A stretch of 64,000 nt of DNA, taken from a virus. Location: the IMG/VR virus record IMGVR_UViG_3300045988_085064, one strand, 5' to 3'. This document shows positions 6,458 through 59,362 of the stretch, piece after piece. Under the pieces are notes generated by a model, which was given only the letters and a program-made list of their open reading frames with translations, ran no database searches and had not been told where the DNA came from. Positions within the stretch are counted from its first letter, which is position 1; every line of letters starts with the position of its first letter. Both the position numbers and the translations under genes were made by a program.

Positions 6458-6705
6458 AACAATATGTCAATGAATATGATGAAGCTCTCAATGCTCTAAC
6501 TAGCGGTATGCTTGATACAAGTGATATTGAGCCATATATGGGTGCTATTGTTGGAGCATTGCAGAAACAAATCCCCATATATGCGGTTGGTGTGCGCTCA
6601 TCTGGATTGTACAAAGATAGTGGCATTTGCCAGTTATGTGGTAATGATGTCAACTCATATATGCAATATTGTGAATGTTGTGGGCAAGCGTTGAAATGGA
6701 AATGA
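6454..6705 (+). CDS. Hypothetical protein with C-terminal zinc ribbon
   Basis: ATGA overlap. Contains CQLCGN...CECCG. Confidence 0.4.
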   Translation: MKQYVNEYDEALNALTSGMLDTSDIEPYMGAIVGALQKQIPIYAVGVRSSGLYKDSGICQLCGNDVNSYMQYCECCGQALKWK

Positions 6706-6812
6706 TAATGTGTCCATATAAAGATGGTGCTAAATGTACCGCTCCTGATACAGATTGCCTGCATTGGCAAGGCACATTTTGTGAATTAGATGAATCGAGC
6801 AAGGAGGAATAA
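6702..6812 (+). CDS. Hypothetical Cys-rich mini-protein (36 aa)
   Basis: ATGA overlap with the previous stop. Ends 3 nt before the helicase start. Confidence 0.3.
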   Translation: MIMCPYKDGAKCTAPDTDCLHWQGTFCELDESSKEE

Positions 6813-6815
6813 TCA

Positions 6816-8288
6816 TTGCTCTATGACCAAAATTCTGTTAGGTTGCTATTGGGTTGTTTGCTAATTAAGTCGTCTCTTGCTATTTCCGACAAGTATCCTT
6901 TAAGCCGTGATGATTTCACGGTCGATTTCCATCTCAGATTGTGGCAAGGGTGCGTTGCTCTAGCTAAACGTGGGGCTGAATCTATATCTGCCCTAGACCT
7001 CTATATGCTATGTAAGAATAATAAGCAGGTAGAGGATATATTCAAGTTAAATCAGCTAGACGATTTTATTGATACTGTTAAGCAACTTGCTAATGTGGGC
7101 AATTTTGAGGTATATTACAACAATGTGCGCCGCGCAACATTACTCCGTTCATATAAAAATGCTGGCTATAACGTAGACAAATTTGAGCAAGACGATAAAG
7201 CAACCATAGAAGATATAGTACAATATTTTGACGCACAACAGATAGCTATAAAGAAGCAATTCTATAAAGACAAAGATATAGATGAGCTAAAAGCCGGTGA
7301 TGGATTTGAGGCGGTTAAAGAGGGTTTCAAAGCAGAACCGCTATTCGGCGCAACAACTTTTAGTGAATATCTAAACACAGCTGCTAGAGGTTGGATTCCG
7401 GGACAGCTATCTATCTATTCAGTCGGCTCAGGTGTAGGCAAGTCAACTATTGGCTTGGCTAATCTTGTGCAAGTATGTTGCCCTAGAATCTATGATATAG
7501 ACAAGGGGCAATATGTAGATAATCCATGTTATCAGCATAAGGCTGGTCTATATCTTCAATTTGAGATGGCTGGTGATACTGAAATCACGCCCAAGATTGT
7601 GGCTACAATTAGCGGCGTACCATGTTTTAGCATCTTAAATGGGCGATATGAAGAAGGTGAAGAAGAACGTGTAGATGAGGCTATTAAAATCCTGCATGAA
7701 TCTAAGCTATATATTGTCACCATGCCTAATTATACTGTTGATTTGATTGAATCATATGTAAAGGATTATGTGGTAAATAAGCAAGTAGGCTTTCTATGTT
7801 ATGATTATATCGTTGAATCATCATCCGTATCGAGTGACCTAGCTAAAAAGAACGGCGTATCTACTCGTTCAGATCAGGTGCTATCTGGTATAGCAAGTAA
7901 GCTCAAGGATTTAGCTGTTGAATATAATATAGCAGTACTTACATTTACTCAGGTCAATGCTAATGCTATGACGCAAGAAATTATGGATAGTGGTGTTGCG
8001 GCTGGTTCAAGAGCGATTCAGAACAAGGCTGATGTGGCCGGTGTAATTATGCCTTTGCGCCGTAAAGAGCAAGAGATAGCTGATATGATGATGGAGAAAT
8101 ATCCTGATAAAACAAAGCCAAATCGCGTGCTGCATCTCTATAAAATGCGCTTTTCACAGGTTGAACAGGGTATTAAGATATATTTTAATCTTGACTTGAA
8201 TACTGGACGAACAAAGGATTGTTTTGTAACGAGCAAGTTCGACAATCCAATACAGCTTCAAAGAACAAGGTTGGTGTATGCGAAATGA
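6816..8288 (+). CDS. dnaB: DnaB-like replicative helicase
   Basis: TTG start after AAGGAGG. DnaB-type N-terminal domain, Walker A SVGSGVGKST, 490 aa. Confidence 0.8.
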   Translation: MLYDQNSVRLLLGCLLIKSSLAISDKYPLSRDDFTVDFHLRLWQGCVALAKRGAESISALDLYMLCKNNKQVEDIFKLNQLDDFIDTVKQLANVGNFEVYYNNVRRATLLRSYKNAGYNVDKFEQDDKATIEDIVQYFDAQQIAIKKQFYKDKDIDELKAGDGFEAVKEGFKAEPLFGATTFSEYLNTAARGWIPGQLSIYSVGSGVGKSTIGLANLVQVCCPRIYDIDKGQYVDNPCYQHKAGLYLQFEMAGDTEITPKIVATISGVPCFSILNGRYEEGEEERVDEAIKILHESKLYIVTMPNYTVDLIESYVKDYVVNKQVGFLCYDYIVESSSVSSDLAKKNGVSTRSDQVLSGIASKLKDLAVEYNIAVLTFTQVNANAMTQEIMDSGVAAGSRAIQNKADVAGVIMPLRRKEQEIADMMMEKYPDKTKPNRVLHLYKMRFSQVEQGIKIYFNLDLNTGRTKDCFVTSKFDNPIQLQRTRLVYAK

Positions 8289-30134: not shown

Positions 30135-33100
30135 TCAACGTCTGCTAAAAGCTCTCTGGTATGCTAATGCTTTTACATTTTCTACAAATTTCCTTGCATC
30201 TGCCGCAGTCTGAATATTCGGGAATGACATAGTAGTATTATTAAATTCCATACTCATACCCGCTGGATTTCTATTTGATATAGCAATACCTTTATTATCT
30301 ATAACAGACCTACCCAGATTCCAAAGATTCTTTGTGATATTGCTTGGAATAATTCCATCACCAGAGTTAAGTACCCTAAGTTCTGGGCCATTTTCACCAA
30401 CCATATGAAGCCCACTTGTGCTAGATAATGTTCCATTTGCATATCCAGTAATAGAACTTAGTTTCTTATTGATTTCGTCCTGTTGCTTGATTACCTTGGC
30501 AAGTTCAGCGTCGCGTTTTGCCTCAATCACAGATTTCTTTGCTTCAAGGCTCTTGCTACGATTGTATTCATTTAGAGCTTCTTGCGCCGTGGCAATTGCA
30601 TCATAATCTTGAGCGTATTGATATCGTCCATCCTTAAAAGTATACACCCGCTTAGAACGAGCCTCTGCTAGGTTCTTTAGCAACCCCTCATATTTAATTT
30701 GGTCTTCTAACTTATTGTTTGTATCTTCAAGCGCCTTAATCTCTGCATTATACTTATCATTGATTGCGCTCTGAGTCTCTTTGAGGGCTTTAAGCTGCGC
30801 ATTCAAATTATCCTTTATCTGGGATTTTTCCCATTTGTATATCTCCTCTTGATATTTCCAATATTCCTTTTGATACTCTTGCCGCCCTTGGAAATATTTT
30901 TTATTCATCTCTTCAAGCTCTTTATAATATTGAGCTTCAGAAATTTCATCCATTGCCAAAGCGTGTTTCTTGGCGTCTAACCAAGCATCAAATTCATCTT
31001 TCCAAATATCTTTAGAACTCTTACTAGAACCTGAAGATGAAGATGAACTTGAACCAGATGAGCCAGAACTACTAGCAGAAGAATAAGACGAAGTAGGATA
31101 TGAGCCACTTGTTTCCCTGCTTTTAGACGTTTTAGGGATTTTGCCCTTAGCCGTAATAGGCGTTAGTCTCGAAACAAGGTCGAACGAAACTCTTGGGATG
31201 TATCCAAGTCTATGTGCTTGAATCGCGCCATGTAATTTTTTCCCATTTAGAATAGCTCTAGTCTCTTCTGCCGTATACACATAATCTCCATCGTGCATCT
31301 GAGTAATTGTCGGCATACCATTACCAGCGATATATGCCTCATTACCACTTTGGATAAGCTCAGGGCCTTCCTCATTTACAAGAGATGGCCCTTCTTTTGT
31401 TCTACCGCCATCTGCATTGACTTGGTATCTTGTGTCGCCAAGATTCTGAATGTTATTCTTTGCGTTTTGCGCTTGATTGGACACTCTAAGTAGTTGATCG
31501 CCAAGAGACCTAACCTGACTCGTAATACCCGACAGAGACGTACTATTCAAATCTTCCAACTCAGATGTCATCTCTGCCGTTGCAGATTCCGTCTCACCAG
31601 CTTTTTTGATAATATCGTCTATGCTCTCAGGTACATTTGTCAATCTTACATTATCCGCATCTTCCAAAGAACGCTTCATGTCTAAGATGGCATCCTTAGA
31701 ATAACCAACCTCAGATAACCCCTCTACAACCTTAGTAAAATCGATTTCATTAACGCCATTTTTGACTGTAACAATAGAACTATCAAGATTGCTAAATGCA
31801 GATATGAGCGCATCAATGTTCCAATCAACATCCGCTCCATATACCTTGCCAGCCTCAATAAGTGCCCAAAGCTGAGATGTTGTCAGCCCCATAGAATTGG
31901 CAAGTTGGTCAAAATCAGTAATATTATAGGATATAGAGTCTCCCGTTGTATCTAATGTCGCGCCAACAAGCTCTCCAGCATCTGCCAATTCTTGCATAAC
32001 TGTAACAAATCCAAGCCCGCCCGATTCAGCGTCAGAATACAAGGTTGACAATCTATCCATAATACCGGCCATATACTCAGCCTTATCAGAAGCGTTGTCA
32101 AATCTAGTTAAAATGTCATCCCCGACAAGTTGAGATAAGGCATTTCTGAATGTTAGAGAGCCAATTTGCCCAGCTTCAAATTCGTCATTAAGAGTTGAGA
32201 ACACAGATGCAAGCCCCTTAAAAGCATCATCATAGTCGCCCGTTTGGGACATGGCATTGTCAAAATTCGTTTTAGCATCTGTCGCGCCTTGAATCATGTC
32301 GGCCCATCTTAGAACCGTTTCAGCAGACGATTTGAATTTAGAATCCATATCGCTGGTCGCATCGCCTATACTACCAGCTAGATCGCTAAACCTCTTATAT
32401 AGCTCATAGACTTCATCCTTGGTAATAGATAATCTTTGAGCAATAGTATCAGCAACATCAGAAAACGACCGCCCCTCAGAATTAGCAACCGTTTGTACCA
32501 CTACCAATTGCTGATAACTATTATATTCATCCATCAAAGCATCAGATACTTGATTCCCAGCATCTATCTGTTGCTTGATGATTTCATAATATTGTTTGCC
32601 GCTTTGAATCGCATTGTCAACATCTTCGGCCCAGCGCTTAGTTTGTGCTCTGGGACTATCAAATATATTCTTAGACATCCCAGAATAGGTATATAAAGAT
32701 TTGTAATATTCAGCATTGGACTTTGCGGCCTCGTTCTGAGATACAGTATTTTCCTTAATGGCAATTCCATATTTCTTAGCGGCTTTGGCAAGAGCCTCGG
32801 TATCTGCCTCATAATCGCCTGTTACCTCAATAAGGTCAATCAATTTGGCCTTTTGAGCAATTATAGTTTGGCTATTTGTAGCGGACGCTATCGTAACAGT
32901 GATCTCGGCATCAGCAATATCCCATAGAGCATCAGACATATCTTTGTATACCTTAGTATTATCAATACCAGATATATTAATATTTGAATTCTTGGTGCCA
33001 ACAGATACACCTTCAACCCTATCCTTGCTAAGGATTGACGCGCCTTCAGCAATTTGAGCTTTCTGTTGGATATCTAGCAACTTTTCATAATATGCAATGA

Positions 33101-33978
33101 CGTGCTCTAGGTATTCCGCTTCTTTATCAATATCAGCGGTCCTGTCCTCCCATGGCGTTGCATTGATTTCCTGAAGACTGGACTTAGCATCATCGTATTT
33201 GCCGCTAATTTCTTGGACTTTATCTCCAAGTTCATTATATTCATCAATATGCTCTTGGATGGATTTATTTGCTTCGGCAATAAGCCCAGATATGCCTCTA
33301 AACACCTCGGCTAATCCAGCCACAGCCACAGCAACAGCAGCTATAATTACCAATGTTTTCGGAGCTAATAATGTTGCAAGTAAGCCACCGCCACCAGCAG
33401 TTGCCGCTAATGTGGCACTCAATTTAGCCATAGCCGCAATTATAGTGCCAACAATGCCAACTAATGCAGTTAATGCCGCAGCAAATCCACCTACACGGGC
33501 GATAACAGCCACAACATCATTATTGGCAAAACTAAGCATTGTATGCCCAGCATCAAGGAAACCGCTTACTAAATCCTTTGATAAGACACGATTGGAAAAA
33601 TCCTCAAATTCAGCCTTGAGCAGTTGTTCTTTAGCTCCAAGACTTTCCATATACCGCTCATTTTCTTTCATGGCCGAGCCATTGGATTCTAGTGCTGTAT
33701 TAGTTGCATTGATAGCTGTTTGGTAATTCTTTAAAAGAGCGGCTAGATTTTGAGTTTGAGTGGTTCCTGCTTGCTGTTGCAGATAATACATCTGCTCATT
33801 CTTAGTTAATGTCGGCCAGATTTTTGCTACATCAGTCAATACATCATATAGACTGCGAATCTGACCTTCGTCATCTTTTATCGCAATTTCGTGTTCTTGA
33901 TACCATTTTGTAAGCGCCTTACCAGTGTCAGATGATTCATCTACGACTTGGTTTAAGCGGGCTTGTACAGTGATAAGT
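30135..33978 (-). CDS. Tape measure protein, third segment (putative exon 3)
   Basis: 1280 codons. Frame is open from 33977. Begins (R)LITVQARLNQVVD..., continuing the TMP core. Long coiled coil, Ser-rich linker, C-terminal region. Confidence 0.7.
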
Positions 33979-35554
33979 CAATGTATTAACTCGGATTCGT
34001 CACATCCGATAAGGAGAATTTATTTATAAAATCAGTTAACAAGACATCGTGCTCGTCTTTTTCTAACACCCAAAATGGAACCCGCAATAACGGAATGTTA
34101 TTATCTTCACAGTATTTAGTTTTTATCTCGTCATTCTCTTTCACTGTCTCATATTTCTTTTCTGCTTGTTCTCTATATTTTTTACCACCAAATGAAACTG
34201 GCCTATAATGTCCTATTCCATCAACCTCAATGCAAGCATTAAAATCTGTTAAATAAAAATCAAATGGTAATGCTCTTTTATTGACACATCTATCAAATGT
34301 TTTTTCTTTTTCATATAGTATATTATTATTATTTAGCCACAGCTCTACTTTTGCAGAAATAGCAGATTGTTTCATTCTACATTCATTGCATTGATACTTT
34401 CCATCTGCGAAATGATATGCATCAACCTTAAAGTCGTTGCCACAAGAGCATTGAACAATAAATGGCGATTTTACACCATTGTATTCTTGATTATAAATGG
34501 TACAATCCCAATCTTTTAGAAAAGCATATATCCTTAAATTATCAAGAGCGTATGGGTTTGATTTGCCGAATCTCTCAAATGAACACCCGTTATATAGCGA
34601 GGTAACACTAATAAGCCCACGATAACCGTTTTTGTCCTGAACAACAACATTATCTTTTGACCTTATCGTTGAATCATTCAAAATACACAATCCAGATTTC
34701 CTAGCAATTTCATGATATTTGTTAGAATCAATATGGTTTGTATTGACTTCTCCCCTACTTCTTTTTATCTTGTAACATCTATTGCAGCATTTATCATCTT
34801 TTGAATAATATTTATGCCATGTTGATGTAAATTCACCGCCACATATTCCGCACTTAAACATGATTGGCATATCAATGTTTGATATATCTTCTTTTTTTGT
34901 TAATAAAATAGTACCATACTCATTTGTCTTTTTGATATATAACATCATATTGTCATAAAAATATGGGTTTTTTGTGCTAAATGTATGCTCTACATCCACA
35001 GAGTAACGTTTTTTATATGTTAAAGTGTGTTTACAAGTGTGGTAGCTTCTTTTGTATTTATATCCATCAGAATCAACACAGTCATATTTATAATCTACGC
35101 CACGCGCAATATCTTCCAATAACGTTAATCCAACTTGTTCAAATAATTTCCTTGTTTCTTCTATTGTTATTTTTTTCGACATAAATTCTCCTTCTTGCAT
35201 TTTCATGCAATGTTTAGACTATTTCTTCATCTCATAGTATTGAGAGTCTATCATTTCGATTTAAGGGAATCTCACCCACAAGCTTAGACGTACTTGCCCT
35301 ACTCCTATTGTGATATAGTCACCAATGGGATAGTCGTTTGACTCACTCCTATTCGGAGCTTTGCGCCCAAACATCCATTATAAAATACTTAGGTGTTTCC
35401 ACCATATATCATCTCTATCGTTTTTAATACTTTCGCACATTCACGCTTGTCAATCTTTCAAGACTACGTTGTAGTGATAGAGCTTTAGGAATTACTGGGT
35501 TTAGATAGATATCATGAGGCATATTACTATACCTCTAGGCACTTATTGTTTGCC
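33979..35554 (-). mobile_element. Intervening sequence 2 in the tape-measure gene (group-I-intron-like, carries endonuclease ORF); ends +/-15 nt
   Basis: It separates two TMP fragments that lie in different frames. Its 5' roughly 330 nt is paralogous to intervening sequence 1, with compensatory helix changes. The terminal base is G in the splice model. Confidence 0.55.
33986..35182 (-). CDS. Intron-encoded endonuclease candidate: zinc-ribbon repeats + PD-(D/E)xK/Vsr-like C-terminal domain
   Basis: ATG 35182 after AAGGAG. Contains CGICGG..CCNRC and CSCGN..CNEC modules. C-terminal LPFDFYLTDFNACIEVDGIGHY...NIPLLRVPFW. Confidence 0.5.
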   Translation of the reverse strand: MSKKITIEETRKLFEQVGLTLLEDIARGVDYKYDCVDSDGYKYKRSYHTCKHTLTYKKRYSVDVEHTFSTKNPYFYDNMMLYIKKTNEYGTILLTKKEDISNIDMPIMFKCGICGGEFTSTWHKYYSKDDKCCNRCYKIKRSRGEVNTNHIDSNKYHEIARKSGLCILNDSTIRSKDNVVVQDKNGYRGLISVTSLYNGCSFERFGKSNPYALDNLRIYAFLKDWDCTIYNQEYNGVKSPFIVQCSCGNDFKVDAYHFADGKYQCNECRMKQSAISAKVELWLNNNNILYEKEKTFDRCVNKRALPFDFYLTDFNACIEVDGIGHYRPVSFGGKKYREQAEKKYETVKENDEIKTKYCEDNNIPLLRVPFWVLEKDEHDVLLTDFINKFSLSDVTNPS

Positions 35555-35915
35555 CTACTTCCCTTGGCGGCGTTCCTCGTGATTTCAGTCATAGCCGTAA
35601 GCATACCAAGGGATTGTTCAAATGTATTATTGCCTGTTGCCATAGCAGCAGACATATTACCTAGGTTCTGTGCTAATTGCCCAGATGAAACAGCATAATT
35701 ATTTGATACAGCATTAACCGCATCGATAATATGCTCAGCATTATCCGCTTCAATATTGAACGCCTTCATCTGCGCAACAATAAATGATGCGCTATCTGCC
35801 GCAGAAACCGATTCATCCGCTACGTTCTGAAAAGTAGTCGCAACTTTAGCTAGAGTTGCCGAGTCAGAATCATTAAAGCTGTTTTTACGGAATTGAGTTG
35901 CGGCCTCAACCATCT
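35555..35915 (-). CDS. Tape measure protein, second segment (putative exon 2)
   Basis: TMP-core-like ...SSGQLAQNLGNMSAAMATGNNTFEQSLGMLTAMTEITRNAAKGS. Frame is closed 9 nt upstream of its first ATG and 27 nt after the proposed junction. Confidence 0.6.
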
Positions 35916-52325: not shown

Positions 52326-52583
52326 ATTCTCATTCCTTTCTGTTCCGTTTATTTTCCTATAAATATGACGAAGCAGCCAAGATTACTCTTAGCTGCTTCA
52401 TATTTGTCAAAGTTCAATATTCAATTAAACAACAGTTCCCATTGAGTTGGGCTTATTGTAGATATGAGCCGATTGGCTCCGATCACCTCCTTCTCAATTA
52501 TGCTTCGGATAAACCAGTGGATAATTCAAGAGAATAGTGACCTCCTTTCGGATATTTCTAAACTTGCTATTGCAAGGATAGAT

Positions 52584-53783
52584 TTAATTCAAAATGTATT
52601 TCTTAGTCCATGTCTTTTGCCCATCTTCAAATAGCATAAGTAATGCACCAGCTCTTGACAACTTACGACATCTCTTGCTATAATCATCGATACCAACAAT
52701 AGATGGACATTTAATTACCTCTTTCTCTGTATTCAATCCAATACCAACAGACTGCTGTTCAAGATGATGAAAATGACCAAGTAGCAGAATATCAATATCA
52801 ATCTGGTGATAGTCCTCAAAGAACGCAATTTCTCTAGTTGCATCCTTAGTATCATCGCCATGATATGCTAGGATATTCACGCCCTGAATTGTCTTAAACC
52901 CACATTCAGCATATGGCGCAATCTCAATGTTTGGATTATCCTTTAGCCGCAACTGAACAATCTGTGTGATAATCTTAGCAATATTATCTTCTGGGAAATC
53001 GCCCTTTTTACCATTGAGCAATCTAAGTTCACTATGATTGCCACCAACTGCAATATATTCAATCGGAACTTGTAGGCGTTCGCTCAACTCAACTAGCCAT
53101 TGGCTGATATATTCAGCATACTGCATGGCGCTATCTACAATCCCAGCCTTGAGCTTCATAAGGTCTGATAGCCTCAACGCACCTTGAATGGAATCCCCCA
53201 TATCGAACACCACAAGGCGACTAAATGATGATACGGAATATGCGTCATCCTCGATATTGTTCATCAGCTTTTCCATTCGCGCCTTGAATACATCAGAATT
53301 ATACACATTGACCTTTTCACCAAACAATGAATCCATGTCAATCATTGTGCCATAATGCTCATCTCCAATGCACAATACGCCGGCTTGCTCTTTGATTGGG
53401 TCTGGCTCGAATTTGCGACTGAACTTGATGGGCTCAAGCCGATTAATGGCGGCAACAATTTCTTCATTGAGCATATCATGTCGTGCCACTTCTCGTCTGT
53501 TCGCCGCATATTCAAGATTTTCTGTGCGCAGTTTTAGACGTGATTTCTCTAGCTCCTGCTTAGCCTCTCTGAGTTGTGATAAAATATTAGCGTCTTTTTC
53601 GTCTGATTCACAATCGTCTGCGCCGTTCAGCATATTGCGGACAAATACAGCACAACGACGTAAATATTCCTCTGACCAGACGCCCCTATAATCTTCACCA
53701 AGACAACGAGCCGTCCATTCCTGCAAGTCAATTAACTTGCTATCCAGCAGCTCAGTCGCTTGTCGTATCTTCTGTAGATTCAT
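52584..53783 (-). CDS. Calcineurin-like metallophosphoesterase
   Basis: Motifs VFDMGDSIQG, GGNHSE, YHGDD and LLGHFHH. Confidence 0.65.
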   Translation of the reverse strand: MNLQKIRQATELLDSKLIDLQEWTARCLGEDYRGVWSEEYLRRCAVFVRNMLNGADDCESDEKDANILSQLREAKQELEKSRLKLRTENLEYAANRREVARHDMLNEEIVAAINRLEPIKFSRKFEPDPIKEQAGVLCIGDEHYGTMIDMDSLFGEKVNVYNSDVFKARMEKLMNNIEDDAYSVSSFSRLVVFDMGDSIQGALRLSDLMKLKAGIVDSAMQYAEYISQWLVELSERLQVPIEYIAVGGNHSELRLLNGKKGDFPEDNIAKIITQIVQLRLKDNPNIEIAPYAECGFKTIQGVNILAYHGDDTKDATREIAFFEDYHQIDIDILLLGHFHHLEQQSVGIGLNTEKEVIKCPSIVGIDDYSKRCRKLSRAGALLMLFEDGQKTWTKKYILN

Positions 53784-54315
53784 TCAATTCCTGTTCCTTT
53801 TCCTTCTTTTTCCGTTCATAATCTTCTTTTTTCTTGTTAATTACATTGATAAAATCATCATAGCTCTGTTGCTTTGCTTTTTCCATGCGCTCTTGCGCAA
53901 TTTGCTCAAGCGATTTTCGCGCAGTACGTTCCATCTCCGCTTGAGTTATCAACTTGAGATCATTTGGCGTCAACTTGCGTTCACGAACGCGCTTACGATA
54001 TTTCTTTGTAACGCCGCGCCCATTTACATTATTTAGAAAATCCTCATTCACGGTATATAGTATCTTAAACCATGCAGGATTGATACGTTCAACAAGTTCT
54101 CCTGCATCGTTCTTAGCTGTTACTCTATACTCAGGTATTTCTTTCAAATCAAATCTACCTATACTGGGCATTTGGCATTTGCCATCAAAATGAAGAATAT
54201 GAATAATAGTATCAACAAAGCCAATCCAGTATTTCTTGGCGGTCTGTGGTGATACATTAAGCAATCCACCAGCATAGGCATAAAATTCCTGATTCAGTTT
54301 ATTGCACTCAGCCAT
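53752..54315 (-). CDS. HU/IHF-like DNA-binding protein with Lys/Glu-rich C-terminal extension
   Basis: DNABII-like pattern ...VDTIIHILHFDGKCQMPSIGRFDLKE...FKILYTVNEDF. Second of two adjacent paralogue-like genes. Confidence 0.4.
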   Translation of the reverse strand: MAECNKLNQEFYAYAGGLLNVSPQTAKKYWIGFVDTIIHILHFDGKCQMPSIGRFDLKEIPEYRVTAKNDAGELVERINPAWFKILYTVNEDFLNNVNGRGVTKKYRKRVRERKLTPNDLKLITQAEMERTARKSLEQIAQERMEKAKQQSYDDFINVINKKKEDYERKKKEKEQELNESTEDTTSD

Positions 54316-54727
54316 CTTCTTCTTCCTTCATAAACTTGGGATTATCAGGATAATTTTCTAATACCCAAGCATCCCATTCTTCTTTGGTTGTTCTTTTCCC
54401 ATACAATGTGCCACCTTTAACAGCACTTGCCATATGTTTCTCGGCTTTGAAATTCAGCCTATAATAACCCTGCCTGTCAGGATAATACATACGCCGCTTT
54501 TGAAATCCATTCCAATATTCACCGGCTGGCTTTGGTGGGTAGTCACGAAATGTAATAACACCAATATCAGGCAGTGAATACTCCACGCCATGCTGTAGTG
54601 TCTCACGGATAATATCGTGATAATTTCTTAAAACAAGTTCAATTATCTTAGAATCAACACCTGTGCGCCGTCGTAACTCTTTGTTCATATCGGCCTTACC
54701 AAGCCGAGGATATTTATTGTTATGCAA
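54308..54727 (-). CDS. HU/IHF-like DNA-binding protein
   Basis: MNKELRRRTGVDSKIIELVLRNYHDIIRETLQHGVEYSLPDIGVITFRD...FKAEKHMASAVKG follows the HU fold pattern. Confidence 0.5.
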   Translation of the reverse strand: MHNNKYPRLGKADMNKELRRRTGVDSKIIELVLRNYHDIIRETLQHGVEYSLPDIGVITFRDYPPKPAGEYWNGFQKRRMYYPDRQGYYRLNFKAEKHMASAVKGGTLYGKRTTKEEWDAWVLENYPDNPKFMKEEEDG

Positions 54728-54804
54728 TTATATCGTTCCTTTCCCTATTAGTCTACCACAATATATTATGGTAAGTTCATTTTGTCTATATATTTCCTAC
54801 CGTT

Positions 54805-57369
54805 TTAACATATCCCCGTGCGGACAGGTGGGGCTTCCCGTGATTCAACGCGCCGCCGATTATCTGCTTTTTTGTAGCATTCCTCTGAGCAATAATGCTG
54901 ACATATATCTCGTGGCTTAAACCGCTTGCCGCAAATAGGGCAGATTGGATTAAATTGTGCTGTATTGATTCTCAAATTTTCTACAATCGTCCAACCAAAA
55001 CAAGCCCATAGCATTTTCTTATTACTTGATTTTTTGACCGTATATAGATAAGCTACCAAGCTATTAACCACAACATCTATCGGCTCATTGCTATATTCCA
55101 CTATATCTTGTCCAATGCGACGATATTTATACAAATCATCCTCATTGATATGCGGGTCATCGCCATAATCAAATCTACGCTGGTTCCATATCCACCAATT
55201 ATACCTCTCTATAATGGGTGAATTTTCTCTAGTGGTATAATCAACTGATTTATTTATCAGCATCGTCCAGTCGAATTTCCCAATCTTGTTATTATAACGA
55301 ATTCGGGAAGCAGGAATTTTTGCCGATATGCGATTCATCGTGGAATTGTTCGGTGGCTCTACTTGTGTATCCGGGTCTTTGTCTTTGGCATATTGGAAGA
55401 AATTTGGAACACGGGCTTTTGTATATTGTTTGATTGTGTTGTTGATTTGTTTCGGTCGTTCTGGTAGCCATTGTGTTTTAGCACAATCTATAACAGCGTT
55501 GTTCTCGAAACAAAGCCATTTAACTACGTTTAGTTCTTCCTGTGTGATTTCACCACTATTCCATATTTTTGTAATGTTATTACTAACCGGGCCAATATTG
55601 CCCTTGGTATAAGCATTAACCATTCCATTGTACATACTGTCTGGATTTAATAAACCGCCCTTGGCTTTTTTGAGGTCATATGCCAAAGGGACTATATCTT
55701 GCATATTGCGTTTGGCGCAGTTTGTCAATGCTCTATCTTTTATCACTAGAGCCTTATCCCCATCTACGTCGAACATAAGATAACGTGAAATAAGATCATG
55801 ACAACTAGTATATATACACTTAGTTCCACCAAACCAATAATCAAGCTCTAAACTGCGACGATTTGTCCTGATTGCCCATTCTCGATATAGATGCGGTGAA
55901 CGTAGACAAGCCAATGTTTCTTCATCTCGATATTGGTTTGTATATACATCGCCATCTGCAAGCAATCCCTGTGGGTTTTGTTCACCTAAGAACAACCATT
56001 CGCAGAACGCATATAGATCAGGTGATAAGAATAAATATTTCCCGTTTACTCTAAGCCGTCCACCCTTGGCTTGTTTTACTAGGCTCTTTTTAGTCTGTTT
56101 CAGAATTTCTCGGTTATACGAATCTTTAAACAGCTCAGGATATATCAACAACGCCTCTTGCATAGCTGATTTATATCGGTTATTCTCTGCCGCTCCAAGT
56201 AACCGCATAGTAACTTGATAATCCTTGCCAACATCATCAATCTCTTGCACCGTCTTAGAGATGATGCGGTCTATCTCATTATCAGTCATATCGCTCAATG
56301 TCTGTAGCATCTGATAATTGATGCGGCTCTTTGGGATATATAGTTCTTCAATATTGCAATAGCAAGCATTGCATCCAAAATTTTTGAATCGCGCCTTATA
56401 ACATTCCCACGAATCATAAAATTTCCATAGCTTGAATTGGCTCTTTGTAAATATATACCGTATATCTTCCTCTATGATTTTGTGCTCGTTTCCATAAATA
56501 TCTGTTACTATTGCCTCACCACCGCATTTTTCTTTGATAAATTTATCAAATGGAAATGTAACAAGTAATCCCTTTACCCATGGCATACGCACCATTCTTG
56601 TTGTCTCATCAAGCATGATACCGCATCCGTCCATATGAGGAATAATCGTCTCTGTCATTTCGCGCCGAATCTCATATGACACGCCATCAATATGGTCAAC
56701 CAATCCTGGGACAGCCGTTTCCCAATCGTCTACTACAATTGATTTGTCAATATCGAAATTTTGCCAAACGTCTGTGGCCGAGTTCATAAGTGCCAAATAT
56801 GCAAGGAATTTATTTTGATTCATACCTCCCCGCTCATTGATTTCATCTATAGTCAAGCCGCACATCAATTTTTGCTCAATGCGCTTAAATGACGATTCTT
56901 TAACGAATATGGCTCGTTTCGTCCTTATCTGTCCAGCGGATGCAGTGAGAAACACATATTTTTCACCATTGTAGATAAATCCTTGATGAACTAGATTGTT
57001 AAATACCTGAAAGAAAAATACGTTGATTATGAACAGCTTATCAGTCAACTTGAACGGCTCAAGCCCTAAGCTGCGCGTTAGATCGGATTCAAACAAATTA
57101 ACAACCGTCTTATCTGTCACAGCATCTTGACGCAATTCTCTAGTTACATTTCGGCTCACCGCATCGTCTAGCAATTCAGATAGCCGCGCCTTTTCTTTTT
57201 TGAGCAAACGATTTGCTGACTTAATGCGCCAATCTGGCTTATTGTCATCTTTCCAATGCTTACGCAACGAATATAACCGAACGAGCCGTCTATGCAGCGT
57301 CATTTCGTTATCATCATAAAAACATGACGTGTCCACTGAATGCAAATAAATTTGCGTCTGTAGTCTCAA
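54805..57369 (-). CDS. YonO-like single-subunit two-barrel DNA-dependent RNA polymerase
   Basis: 854 aa. LRSPHLYREWAIR followed 36 aa later by MFDVDGDKALV parallels the beta-prime NRAPTLHR...NADFDGD double-psi beta-barrel. TTG start after GAGGTG. HU-like genes lie immediately downstream, as with yonO-yonN in SPbeta. Confidence 0.65.
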   Translation of the reverse strand: MRLQTQIYLHSVDTSCFYDDNEMTLHRRLVRLYSLRKHWKDDNKPDWRIKSANRLLKKEKARLSELLDDAVSRNVTRELRQDAVTDKTVVNLFESDLTRSLGLEPFKLTDKLFIINVFFFQVFNNLVHQGFIYNGEKYVFLTASAGQIRTKRAIFVKESSFKRIEQKLMCGLTIDEINERGGMNQNKFLAYLALMNSATDVWQNFDIDKSIVVDDWETAVPGLVDHIDGVSYEIRREMTETIIPHMDGCGIMLDETTRMVRMPWVKGLLVTFPFDKFIKEKCGGEAIVTDIYGNEHKIIEEDIRYIFTKSQFKLWKFYDSWECYKARFKNFGCNACYCNIEELYIPKSRINYQMLQTLSDMTDNEIDRIISKTVQEIDDVGKDYQVTMRLLGAAENNRYKSAMQEALLIYPELFKDSYNREILKQTKKSLVKQAKGGRLRVNGKYLFLSPDLYAFCEWLFLGEQNPQGLLADGDVYTNQYRDEETLACLRSPHLYREWAIRTNRRSLELDYWFGGTKCIYTSCHDLISRYLMFDVDGDKALVIKDRALTNCAKRNMQDIVPLAYDLKKAKGGLLNPDSMYNGMVNAYTKGNIGPVSNNITKIWNSGEITQEELNVVKWLCFENNAVIDCAKTQWLPERPKQINNTIKQYTKARVPNFFQYAKDKDPDTQVEPPNNSTMNRISAKIPASRIRYNNKIGKFDWTMLINKSVDYTTRENSPIIERYNWWIWNQRRFDYGDDPHINEDDLYKYRRIGQDIVEYSNEPIDVVVNSLVAYLYTVKKSSNKKMLWACFGWTIVENLRINTAQFNPICPICGKRFKPRDICQHYCSEECYKKADNRRRVESREAPPVRTGIC

Positions 57370-57509
57370 AAAATCACCTCTAATTCATTCTCTGAACTAC
57401 CATATATCCAAAGCGCCCAATCGCGCTCAGTTGGCTCATATTTATCATCCCATACTTCTGGTTCTGTATCTTCCGATACATACCAGTTATAACTCATTTC
57501 GCTCCACAA
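57366..57509 (-). CDS. Hypothetical acidic mini-protein (47 aa)
   Basis: TTG start after AAGGAGGTGG. Its stop overlaps the RNAP start (TTGA). Confidence 0.35.
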   Translation of the reverse strand: MWSEMSYNWYVSEDTEPEVWDDKYEPTERDWALWIYGSSENELEVIF

Positions 57510-57591
57510 TTTATTACCACCTCCTTGAGCTTAATGCTATTATATCATATAATTGTATAAGTAAATACTAACGTATTTACTTATTTACTAT

Positions 57592-57620
57592 ATTATACCA
57601 TATATTTATCACTTTGTCAA
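57592..57620 (-). promoter_or_regulatory. Sigma70-type promoter for the RNAP operon
   Basis: Minus strand: TTGACA (57620-57615), a 17-nt spacer, TATAAT (57597-57592). Confidence 0.55.
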
Positions 57621-57644
57621 GTAGTAAAATAAAAAATTTTTCTA

Positions 57645-57673
57645 TTGACATTACATACTTTCTATGCTATAAT
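57645..57673 (+). promoter_or_regulatory. Sigma70-type promoter (divergent, upstream copy)
   Basis: TTGACA at 57645-57650, a 17-nt spacer, TGcTATAAT ending at 57673. Confidence 0.55.
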
Positions 57674-57691
57674 ATCTAGTATATATAATTA

Positions 57692-57742
57692 CAATTTAAC
57701 TATTATCTACTTCATATTCATTCGTAGATAATAGTTAAATTG
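57692..57742. repeat. Perfect 19-bp inverted repeat with 13-nt spacer
   Basis: CAATTTAACTATTATCTAC (57692-57710) and GTAGATAATAGTTAAATTG (57724-57742). Confidence 0.8.
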
Positions 57743-57773
57743 ATGTGAAAAATCAATTTGTTAAAAATTATGC

Positions 57774-57802
57774 TTGACAAGTGCAAATTGATGTGATATA
57801 AT
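57774..57802 (+). promoter_or_regulatory. Sigma70-type promoter for the 57.8-61.3 kb block
   Basis: TTGACA at 57774-57779, a 17-nt spacer, TGaTATAAT ending at 57802. Confidence 0.6.
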
Positions 57803-57823
57803 CATAGCGTGAGGTGAAAATAA

Positions 57824-58015: not shown

Positions 58016-58224
58016 TGCCAAGAACAAAGAAAATTAACGCCGTAGTCCAATATGGTAATACTGGTTGGATTATCAATGATTGCGGCAATGGGAAATTTGA
58101 GCTATATAATACCAGCATCAAGCAGATTTTAGCAAAGAGCAATAATCCATTGGATTTTGATAAGCATATAGATAAAATTTTTGGTAAGGAGGCAGCTAGG
58201 CGTGTTCGATATTTTCAGACTTAA
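58015..58224 (+). CDS. Hypothetical small protein
   Basis: 69-aa ORF with a TAATG-type junction. Confidence 0.4.
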   Translation: MPRTKKINAVVQYGNTGWIINDCGNGKFELYNTSIKQILAKSNNPLDFDKHIDKIFGKEAARRVRYFQT

Positions 58225-59362
58225 TAAGAAGAAAGCGGCGATTGAAGAAAATATTGCTCTACTTGAAGCCAAGCAAAAAGCAATGCAAGAAAAAATCAAA
58301 GCACTGGATGAACTAACTACAGTTAGACAGAATAAAGCTAATTGTGCTGAAATTGCTGCAAAAGAAGCCCAATCTGTTCTTAATGCTCTAAAGGGTCAAA
58401 TCCATACCATTGAAGAAATGCAGGATTATAATATTCCATATTATCAAGATTCTCTAGATGAGCTTGAGCATAGACGATATAATCTACAGAGCAAAATTGA
58501 ATCTGCTGTAAACGCTGGATTATATCGCATTAAGCAAGGATATACACTAAACGGCTCGGATAAGCGCGGTAAGGAAATGCAGGATGTGTATGGGCGTGGA
58601 TTGATTTACAGTTGCAACGCATATATTGACAACAAAGAAAAATCCGTAACAATAGGCAATATTGCTAAGAGCAAAGAATTGATTAAAAATAAATTTAATT
58701 CTTATCAATCTAAGGCAAATAAAGTCGGATTGGCGCTTAATGCCGAATATGTAAAGGCGCGGCTTGATATGCTTGATATCAACTTAGCTATCAAAGTAAA
58801 GCAGAAAGAAGAAAAGGCGCGAATCCGTGAAGAAAAGCGCAGATTGAGAGAACAAGAACAACTGCTTGCTGATATTGCTAGAGAACGAGCCAAGTTGCTA
58901 GAAGAAAAGAAGGCAATGAATATTGCGTTTGATAAAGCATTGACAGATGATGAGCGTAATAGGATTAAATCTCAATTAGCTAGTATTGACAAACGGCTTG
59001 ATTCTATTGCTTATCGTGAGTCACATAGCAAGGCTGGTTGGCTATATGTTATTAGTTCTCCTAGTCTGCCCGGATTGGTGAAGCTAGGTTGCACCAGAAG
59101 ATTGAATCCCACATTGAGGGTGCGCGAACTTAGCTCAAGCAGCTTGCCAGAGCCATATCATGCTCATTGCTTTGTGTTCAGTGATGATTGCTTTGAGCTG
59201 GAAAATAATATTCATAAATATTTTGACAAAGAACGGGTCAACCCAGATAGAGAATTTTTTAGAATTGAGCCCAAAGAAGCTATTGATGTACTGCGTAAAG
59301 AATTTCATGTAGATGTCCATTTTGTAGATGAAGATTGTGATGAAAATGAGGAGGATGAATAA
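58202..59362 (+). CDS. DUF4041-like coiled coil + T5orf172 (GIY-YIG-related) domain protein
   Basis: Long coiled coil, then GWLYVISSPSLPGLVKLGCTRRLNPTLRVRELSSSSLP..F..ENNIHKYF...REFF. GTG 58202 after AAGGAGG is used as the start. Confidence 0.55.
   Translation: MFDIFRLNKKKAAIEENIALLEAKQKAMQEKIKALDELTTVRQNKANCAEIAAKEAQSVLNALKGQIHTIEEMQDYNIPYYQDSLDELEHRRYNLQSKIESAVNAGLYRIKQGYTLNGSDKRGKEMQDVYGRGLIYSCNAYIDNKEKSVTIGNIAKSKELIKNKFNSYQSKANKVGLALNAEYVKARLDMLDINLAIKVKQKEEKARIREEKRRLREQEQLLADIARERAKLLEEKKAMNIAFDKALTDDERNRIKSQLASIDKRLDSIAYRESHSKAGWLYVISSPSLPGLVKLGCTRRLNPTLRVRELSSSSLPEPYHAHCFVFSDDCFELENNIHKYFDKERVNPDREFFRIEPKEAIDVLRKEFHVDVHFVDEDCDENEEDE

Follow-up and report, generated by a model that had tools for sequence, protein, structure and literature searches.

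A YonO-family RNA polymerase gene and two HU-fold genes upstream of the structural block of an uncultured gut phage

YonO of phage SPbeta is the only studied member of a group of single-subunit RNA polymerases that are the smallest known relatives of the cellular enzymes, and that matter both for the evolution of the transcription machinery and as compact orthogonal polymerases. The family has reportedly been described before in the literature (for example PMC2919709), with YonO characterized in 2017. YonO is a strictly DNA-dependent, highly processive polymerase, and deletion of its gene silences 37 late genes (Forrest et al. 2017, PMC5467207). SPbeta depends on YonO for late transcription (PMC5467207; PMC8270828), and the YonO promoter and any cofactors are still undefined (PMC5467207). 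The primers used for primer extension in SPbeta bracket a 243-bp interval starting ∼260 nucleotides (nt) downstream of yonN (PMC5467207), and because this mapped start interval begins downstream of yonN, the YonO-dependent unit starts only after yonO and yonN. Here we describe a related locus in a 64,000-nt stretch of viral DNA (IMG/VR virus record IMGVR_UViG_3300045988_085064, hereafter the window), which belongs to a 76.8-kb contig of a human metagenome. It carries a predicted YonO-type polymerase gene, followed by two HU-fold genes and an exonuclease gene. The locus leaves the picture drawn from SPbeta unchanged, and offers testable leads: an HU-family gene beside the polymerase gene and, in most lineages including SPbeta, a short conserved DNA element between the two. 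Coordinates are those of the window, and features lie on the minus strand unless marked (+).

A polymerase gene of the YonO family

The polymerase gene (54805-57369) is an uninterrupted open reading frame (ORF) of 854 amino acids with a TTG start and a GAGGTGA ribosome site. A sequence-only reading of the window had pointed to this ORF as a YonO-like two-barrel RNA polymerase and had put YonO at about 840 residues. The ORF is present as described, SPbeta YonO has 839 residues, and homology, motifs and fold all agree with the proposal. By tblastn against GenBank phages, SPbeta YonO matches the ORF with 44% identity (44.3%) over residues 3-827, 97% of its length, at E = 0. About 20 SPbeta-like phages match it equally well, and a homologue in Clostridium botulinum phage D-1873 reaches 47% identity. 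Among PHROGs, phrog_8308 covers residues 3-836 (E = 2.6e-244). The sole Pfam match is the RNA-dependent RNA polymerase (RdRP) family PF05183, at residues 117-476, with 41.8 bits against a gathering cutoff of 23.8 (E = 8e-11). Beyond the barrel motifs, no sequence match to the beta-prime subunit of cellular multisubunit RNA polymerases was obtained from Pfam or the PDB. Sequence searches of the PDB, with the single sequence and with a profile, gave nothing significant, the best being a plant RDR at E = 1.4, and only the fold search was informative against solved structures.

An AlphaFold2 model of the protein, built on 48 homologues, has a pLDDT of 85 and a predicted template-modelling (TM) score of 0.76. 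In a Foldseek search of the PDB with this predicted structure, the top 21 matches are all two-barrel enzymes, namely maize and Arabidopsis RDR2 and Neurospora and Thielavia QDE-1, with E values of 7e-19 to 6e-12 and TM scores of 0.41-0.52 over ∼800-950 columns at 10-13% identity. The next match is Thermus phage P74-26 gp62 (8f5m, E = 1.5e-5), nothing unrelated appears at E < 1e-3, and bacterial beta-prime and eukaryotic Rpb1 are reached only at E ≥ 0.2 with TM ∼0.07. The top matches in BFVD are phage proteins labelled RdRP. A comparison of this kind with double-psi beta-barrel polymerases had been proposed as a check on the sequence-only reading, and the QDE-1 and RDR2 matches came out in its favor.

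Conservation was read from an alignment of 16 diverse homologues found by tblastn, which are 33-68% identical to the window polymerase. Invariant in it are G146-Q-I-R149, K151, H245, D247-G248, R261, P263, K266-G-L268, L489-R490, P492-H-L494, E497, D534, D536, G537 and D538. The catalytic metal-binding triad lies in DVDGD (residues 534-538; 55756-55770), where D534, D536 and D538 align with DNDGD of YonO; the YonO triad residues could be identified because a published D-to-N mutagenic primer covers them. The corresponding triple D-to-N mutant of YonO forms elongation complexes, yet is inactive (PMC5467207). D534, D536, G537 and D538 are also invariant in the 48 homologues. The segment LRSPHLYREWAIR (residues 489-501; 55867-55905), which contains LRSPHLYRE at residues 489-497, is the counterpart of beta-prime NRAPTLHR, a correspondence taken from published family analyses (PMC5467207). 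The distance from this segment to MFDVDGDKALV (residues 532-542) is 30 residues and not 36 as first read, a minor slip. An N-terminal basic motif, SAGQIRTKR (residues 144-152; 56914-56940), has G146, Q147, I148, R149 and K151 invariant, and it is aligned by the weak plant RDR profile match from the PDB. We infer that the beta-rich N-terminal region around it represents a beta-like first barrel. At the other end of the protein, a zinc-ribbon-like CxxC-13-CxxxC motif, CPICGKRFKPRDICQHYCSEEC (CPICG...CSEEC; residues 810-831; 54877-54942), had been taken for an extra of this enzyme. It is instead a family-wide trait: C810, C813, C827 and C831 are nearly invariant, and a CxxC...CxxC motif stands at the same place in 15 of the 16 aligned homologues, SPbeta YonO included (CCICGKAF...YCQSCG).

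The sequence and predicted-fold traits by which family membership was judged are present, namely homology to YonO, the catalytic triad, the RxPxL motif and the N-terminal basic motif, a predicted two-barrel fold and a single chain of 800-900 residues. On sequence grounds the protein is a single-subunit two-barrel DNA-dependent RNA polymerase of the YonO family, its DNA-templated activity being predicted from its kinship with YonO. It is a further member of a known and widespread family: of 1.84 billion representatives searched exhaustively, 1240 clusters (at 50% identity) match at E ≤ 1e-3, 335 of them even at E ≤ 1e-30, and a word-indexed search gave more than 4100 family proteins. The clade-specific twist of the window is a divergent pair of HU-fold proteins that abuts an exonuclease.

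The phage itself has no DNA match among GenBank phages (megablast, 24 kb). A scan of genome contigs for a host returned only homologues of at most 46% identity, in Paenibacillus, Lachnospiraceae and Ruminococcus, plus one short contig at 60%. Relatives in IMG/VR include many of 80-100 kb with 89-97% polymerase identity, as well as clades at 64-67% and further ones at 42-50%. Insertions of 0.3-1.1 kb interrupt the polymerase gene in many relatives (6603-7572 in the related locus L027 and 6885-7919 in L017; also in L018, L028, L029, L034, L037, L032, L060, L063 and L066), and the window gene is intact. Two fixed insertion points are used, one within the catalytic DVDGD immediately behind D534 and the other behind D628. 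The larger insertions encode an ORF of 215-233 amino acids, probably a homing endonuclease judging by its position only. Inteins were rejected, because the downstream exon is out of frame; the insertions resemble introns, with no Rfam intron model matching at gathering level. Many polymerase representatives in the databases are fragments that stop at residue 534 or 628.

Two HU-fold genes and a conserved element

Downstream of the polymerase gene, after a gap of 77 nt, lies HU1 (54308-54727), which encodes a divergent HU/IHF-family DNA-binding protein of 139 amino acids with an acidic C-terminal tail. It matches Pfam Bac_DNA_binding (PF00216) with 25.3 bits against a cutoff of 22.4, and phrog_379 at E = 4.4e-8. 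Its family profile matches a solved HU (5eka) over the full domain (residues 9-104, E = 2.9e-6), also matches IHF-alpha and the African swine fever virus histone-like protein, and weakly SPO1 TF1. The beta-arm of HU1 is longer than that of classical HU and contains PPKPAG. The next gene, ORF187 (53752-54315), encodes an N-terminal HU-fold domain (residues ∼2-97) followed by a long charged C-terminal helix (residues 117-179). ORF187 has no Pfam match at E ≤ 1 and no PHROG match, and stands outside the HU family at that level; the best PDB matches of its family profile are all HU, but at E = 0.0085. A 164-residue homologue from another metagenome carries a faint precomputed Bac_DNA_binding match. 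The assignment of ORF187 comes from its AlphaFold2 model, which has a moderate pLDDT of 67 and the order helix 2-19, helix 23-44, strands 46-49, 53-60, 63-68, 74-79 and 82-89, and helix 91-97. The top 50 PDB matches of this model in Foldseek are all HU or IHF (best E = 6e-5, target TM 0.5-0.6), and in its predicted structure ORF187 has the HU fold. The arm tip reads KNDAGE in the window, without the RNPxT proline, and DPKTG in some relatives. The gene is kept in every relative of the clade, down to 26-32% identity.

Both genes had been called HU-like, at 54727-54308 and 54315-53752, which fits their exact coordinates and the fold of each. They had also been called a duplicated pair, and this part did not hold: hhalign gave E = 0.015 and a probability of 3%, and the two were rejected as recognizable duplicates. 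The gene that follows (52584-53783) encodes a YonJ-like exonuclease with a calcineurin-type phosphoesterase fold (phrog_284, E = 1.7e-47) and 32% identity to SPbeta yonJ. The overlap of ORF187 with the end of HU1 is 8 nt and that with the start of the exonuclease gene is 32 nt, so that the three genes are probably translated together.

In SPbeta yonN follows yonO, as the sequence-only reading had stated. The adjacency of polymerase and HU genes is a family trait and not a peculiarity of SPbeta, since in 17 of the 24 diverse loci compared the first ORF 3′ of the polymerase gene has a Bac_DNA_binding match in Pfam. HU1 and ORF187 are most likely a DNA-bending pair, possibly an IHF-like heterodimer, with a putative role in aiding late transcription or DNA packaging. 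The strongest rival, to which we give somewhat less than an even chance, is that the HU-fold proteins have nothing to do with transcription and instead bend or condense phage DNA during replication, recombination or packaging, together with the exonuclease, or displace host nucleoid proteins. It is favored by the probable co-translation of the two with the exonuclease, by the terminase and portal genes that lie shortly downstream of the pair, and by SPbeta YonN, which is reported to act as a non-specific DNA-binding protein of the HU type (PMC3258159). The 17 loci speak for a tie to the polymerase, the HU gene directly following the polymerase gene even where the exonuclease is elsewhere or absent; and the discoverers of YonO did not settle whether it depends on accessory factors to recognize promoters (PMC5467207).

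The 77-nt gap between the polymerase gene and HU1 contains a conserved non-coding element, GTAGACTAATAGGGAAAGGAA / GACTAATAGGGAAAGG (54736-54765), with the core TAAGGGA/AATAGGGA. Of 37 loci, 31 have a match to the pattern TAA?GGG[AG] in the first 300 nt downstream of the polymerase stop codon, whereas the remaining sequence of these loci predicts 8%; among the 23 loci that played no part in defining the pattern, 18 have it. Variants of the element include AATAGGG, CTAAGGG and ATTAGGG. Over 25 lineages the consensus is ..TAAT..CT(C/T)TAAGGGA(G/A)A. In SPbeta the element reads CGTCATAAGGGAGACAG and is flanked by the terminator stem-loop of yonO on one side and by yonN on the other, with CATAAGGGAGAC ∼120 nt upstream of yonN. 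In the window the copy at 54736-54765 is unique; no convincing second copy was found in the window or in SPbeta with a sequence profile that is itself weak (0.5 bit per position). A dyad, CCATAATATATTGTGG (CCACAATATATTGTGG in relatives; 54756-54771), overlaps the -10 box of a weak sigma70-like site, TAGACA-17-TATATT (54788-54760), and an equivalent ACAA..TTGT dyad is present in diverged clades.

Several identities for the element were tried and rejected. A canonical sigmaA promoter was set aside for want of a -35 box at proper spacing in the loci inspected by eye; a ribosome site was ruled out in Bacillus-type loci, where the element is 100-120 nt upstream of the HU start; and the mapped SPbeta start site was rejected after nothing scored within the primer-bracketed interval. 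A transcript starting at the GGG with a stabilizing 5′ hairpin was likewise rejected, the GGG being paired as a 5′ arm at 19 of 24 sites versus 165 of 261 controls, which is no real difference. Rfam contained no family matching the element at permissive thresholds, RNAalifold gave no consensus structure from the element to the HU start, the 77-nt gap shows no significant RNA structure (z = -1.6), and enumeration of k-mers downstream of polymerase genes was swamped by AT-rich noise. The element is a candidate for a polymerase-specific promoter, for a control element of the HU genes or for a leader. That it is a promoter or start site recognized by YonO-family polymerases, with the HU-fold proteins as architectural cofactors, is in our estimation unlikely, at perhaps one chance in several. 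If it were true, the polymerase-dependent unit would comprise HU1, ORF187 and the exonuclease as well as the whole structural block, and a promoter consensus with candidate cofactors would become directly testable in vitro.

Promoters, a terminator and the late block

Minus-strand genes run from 57509 to 19934, ∼37.6 kb. Promoters were scored out of 12 positions against the sigma70/sigmaA-type consensus. The polymerase gene is faced by a promoter with a 12/12 match and a TG extension, TTGACA-17-TGgTATAAT (57592-57620), which the sequence-only reading had named as a consensus host-type promoter (57620-57592) and which is the sole 12/12 sense promoter of the minus-strand block. Between its -10 box and the first ribosome site lies a perfect palindrome of 12+12 nt, ATAAGTAAATAC / GTATTTACTTAT (57557-57584), whose arms are 100% complementary. 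The leader RNA folds there with z = -3.6, and the palindrome is a candidate operator-like site or 5′ leader hairpin. The first gene, orf47 (57366-57509; 47 amino acids), has the strong ribosome site AAGGAGGTG and a stop that overlaps the polymerase start (TTGA); the end of the range given for the operon in the earlier reading, 57509, is the start of orf47. Its conservation is 89-98% among close relatives and falls to 54-57% in the clade at 64% identity. It holds the position of SPbeta yonP, with no detectable similarity to yonP.

Beyond this promoter, two rightward perfect sigma70-type promoters (57645-57673 and 57774-57802, both (+)) flank a 19-nt perfect inverted repeat (57692-57742), and 57645-57802 is the rightward early control region. 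The interval 57510-57823 is dense in such features: three perfect sigma70-type promoters, one leftward and two rightward, lie within 230 bp together with the 19+19 nt inverted repeat and the 12+12 nt palindrome. This divergent control region is likely a repressor-controlled early switch. Divergent from the polymerase operon is a gene for a T5orf172/MUG113 (SNIPE-type) nuclease (58181-59362 (+)), and a relative from Hadza gut metagenomes, at 66% identity, has retained this neighbor next to its polymerase gene.

Within the minus-strand block, a late structural and lysis block (19934-52325) contains a YonG-like gene, terminase, portal, virion proteins, tape measure, tail and endolysin. PHROGs matches identify the portal, a structural protein, the tape measure, the tail and the endolysin, and tblastn places SPbeta yonF, yomU, yomI and yomC in collinear order across the block. 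The tape-measure gene looks split (30135-35913) and may carry another mobile insertion: an ORF with 31% identity to part of SPbeta YomI (35527-35913) is followed by an HNH/homing-endonuclease ORF (33986-35206) and the main ORF (30135-33839). On the plus strand, 1-19.9 kb encodes DNA polymerase, Sak4, DnaB, RecJ, an ExoV/Dda helicase and ribonucleotide reductase.

The polymerase-HU-exonuclease unit is separated from the structural genes by a perfect 15-bp terminator-like hairpin with a U-rich tract, CAUAUUUAUA (52368-52401; folding free energy -25.2 kcal/mol, z = -5.8), which lies within the 258-nt gap after the exonuclease. Four clades keep a hairpin and U-rich tract here, with stem sequences that are unrelated. 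Close relatives differ in the length of the gap itself (52326-52583), from 258 nt to ∼1.5 kb, and in the window it contains two strong ribosome-site-like sequences, GAAAGGAGGT and GAAGGAGGTGATC, with no ORF of any length behind them. A likeness between CATATTTATAGG, which follows the hairpin (CATTTATGAGGAG in the related loci L030 and L038), and CATTTATGAGGGTG in the mapped interval of SPbeta was not relied on, because the pattern was shaped after seeing both and is equally well a U-tract plus ribosome site in relatives. A perfect 12/12 sigma70-type promoter with TG (52655-52684 (+)) lies antisense inside the 3′ end of the exonuclease gene, pointing toward the HU genes, with no notable ORF after it.

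The window contains seven 12/12 sense promoters of the sigma70 type, four in the replication block (20 kb) and three at 57.59-57.80 kb. The 35 kb downstream of the polymerase gene contain none, and only two 11/12 sites, one inside a gene (50058-50031) and one intergenic with TG (36319-36291). This agrees with the sparse sigma70-like elements reported for this region; of the two named there, 36319-36291 is the 11/12 intergenic site, and that at ∼52.4 kb is a weak TTGACA-17-TAATCT near 52412. Such scarcity is consistent with, but does not prove, late transcription by the phage enzyme.

We propose that a host sigmaA-type RNA polymerase would transcribe orf47 and the polymerase gene from 57620-57592. 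Transcription would probably run on into HU1, ORF187 and the exonuclease, since the 77-nt gap contains no terminator, and would end at the hairpin at 52368-52401. The late unit would then begin at the YonG-like gene, and the accumulated phage polymerase would transcribe the ∼32-kb structural and lysis block processively, as in SPbeta. The two HU-fold proteins, translationally coupled and kept with the polymerase throughout the clade, may be helpers of late transcription. The polymerase operon had been said to head a 37-kb late strand. The length of the minus-strand block (∼37.6 kb) bears this out; the SPbeta analogy suggests that the host enzyme transcribes the polymerase gene, which would lie upstream of the polymerase-dependent late unit and outside it.

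Taken as a whole, namely a YonO-type polymerase, a host-driven operon, a late block driven by the phage polymerase and an HU pair as helpers, this account seems to us quite probable. Several observations weigh against it. The assignment of late genes to the phage polymerase is drawn by analogy from one phage, SPbeta, and the arrangement differs in the window, which has no equivalent of the 1.7-kb gap that holds the SPbeta late start site. It is from adjacency alone that a role of the HU pair in transcription is suggested, and HU1 has no pairwise (BLAST) similarity to YonN. Weak sigma70-like sites are present at 54788-54760, ∼52.41 kb and 36319-36291, and the host polymerase could use them.

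These sites are the starting point of a second rival, in which the host RNA polymerase mainly reads the structural block from weak or activator-dependent sigmaA-type promoters, and the phage enzyme has a narrower task, such as making one short transcript, a non-coding RNA, or the primers used in replication or packaging. The sites lie in the relevant gaps, the first overlapped by the conserved operator- or activator-like dyad and the last an 11/12 match with TG; no promoter for the phage polymerase was found in the window, and the yonN-yonK gap with the mapped start site of SPbeta is absent. Against this stand the deletion of yonO, which silences 37 SPbeta late genes that are read as one operon (PMC5467207), the lack of any 12/12 promoter in the late block versus seven in the early regions, and the conservation of the polymerase, which at 44% identity is the best-conserved protein between this phage and SPbeta, versus 23-32% for the structural proteins. 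We consider this rival improbable. Weakest of all, and very improbable, is an RNA-dependent RNA polymerase that copies RNA, for small-RNA amplification or in RNA-level conflict, and does not transcribe phage DNA: PF05183 is its only Pfam match, its nearest solved structures are the eukaryotic RNA-dependent QDE-1 and RDR2, and homologues in Psychrobacillus phage Perkons and in Enterocloster and Thomasclavelia phages are annotated as RNA-dependent, but it shares 44% full-length identity with YonO as opposed to 10-13% with eukaryotic RdRPs in structural alignments, YonO is strictly DNA-dependent and needed for late-gene transcription (PMC5467207), and the conserved place of the gene at the head of the structural module suits a transcriptase.

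Comparison with SPbeta and other polymerases

The preferred account, with a host-transcribed polymerase gene and a late block read by its product, has its closest parallel in SPbeta. Both polymerases are single chains of ∼840-855 residues with 44% full-length identity that share DxDGD, RSPHL and the C-terminal CxxC...CxxC, and SPbeta has SAGQIRTKK in place of SAGQIRTKR. In both phages a small ORF precedes the polymerase gene and an HU gene follows it. The gene order is that of SPbeta, yonP, yonO, yonN (HU), yonJ, yonG, yonF, yonE ... yomI ... yomC, with terminase, portal, tape measure and endolysin; apart from the polymerase, identities to SPbeta are 23-32%. Unlike SPbeta, the window has two divergent HU-fold genes after the polymerase gene rather than one canonical HU, and no hairpin terminator directly after the polymerase gene. 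Its HU genes abut the exonuclease, whereas SPbeta has the 1.7-kb yonN-yonK gap with the late start site and a DUF3800-VIII RNA. The window phage is, moreover, an uncultured human-gut phage of ∼77-100 kb with no DNA similarity to any GenBank phage.

The DUF3800-VIII RNA in the SPbeta gap corresponds to the region of unannotated non-coding RNA mentioned by Forrest et al. Neither this RNA nor drum RNA was found in the window with Rfam. A close relative has a DUF3800-VIII RNA between the exonuclease and the YonG-like gene, and another relative has a drum RNA there (the DUF3800-VIII and drum sites are 10381-10446 in L001, 11216-11283 in L027 and 10947-11044 in L017).

Among other polymerases, QDE-1 and RDR2 (PF05183) share the two-barrel fold with the predicted model, and the Pfam match is above threshold; they differ in using RNA templates in gene silencing, whereas the characterized phage homologue is strictly DNA-dependent. 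Gp62 of Thermus phages P74-26 and P23-45 is likewise a sigma-less phage enzyme built on double-psi beta-barrels, but the match to it is much weaker (TM 0.28-0.38), with no match at the level of sequence. The virion polymerase of crAss-like phages is also sigma-less, phage-encoded and based on double-psi beta-barrels. To T7-like single-subunit polymerases the analogy is functional only, in that a host-transcribed polymerase gene is followed by polymerase-dependent late genes; these enzymes have the unrelated right-hand, Pol I-like fold, and none was matched in the Pfam, PDB or Foldseek searches of the window polymerase. As for the accompanying proteins, the presence of adjacent genes for two different HU-fold chains is reminiscent of the heterodimer of IHF alpha and beta, with the pairing of HU1 and ORF187 being putative, and ORF187 is set apart from classical HU by its C-terminal helix of ∼60 residues.

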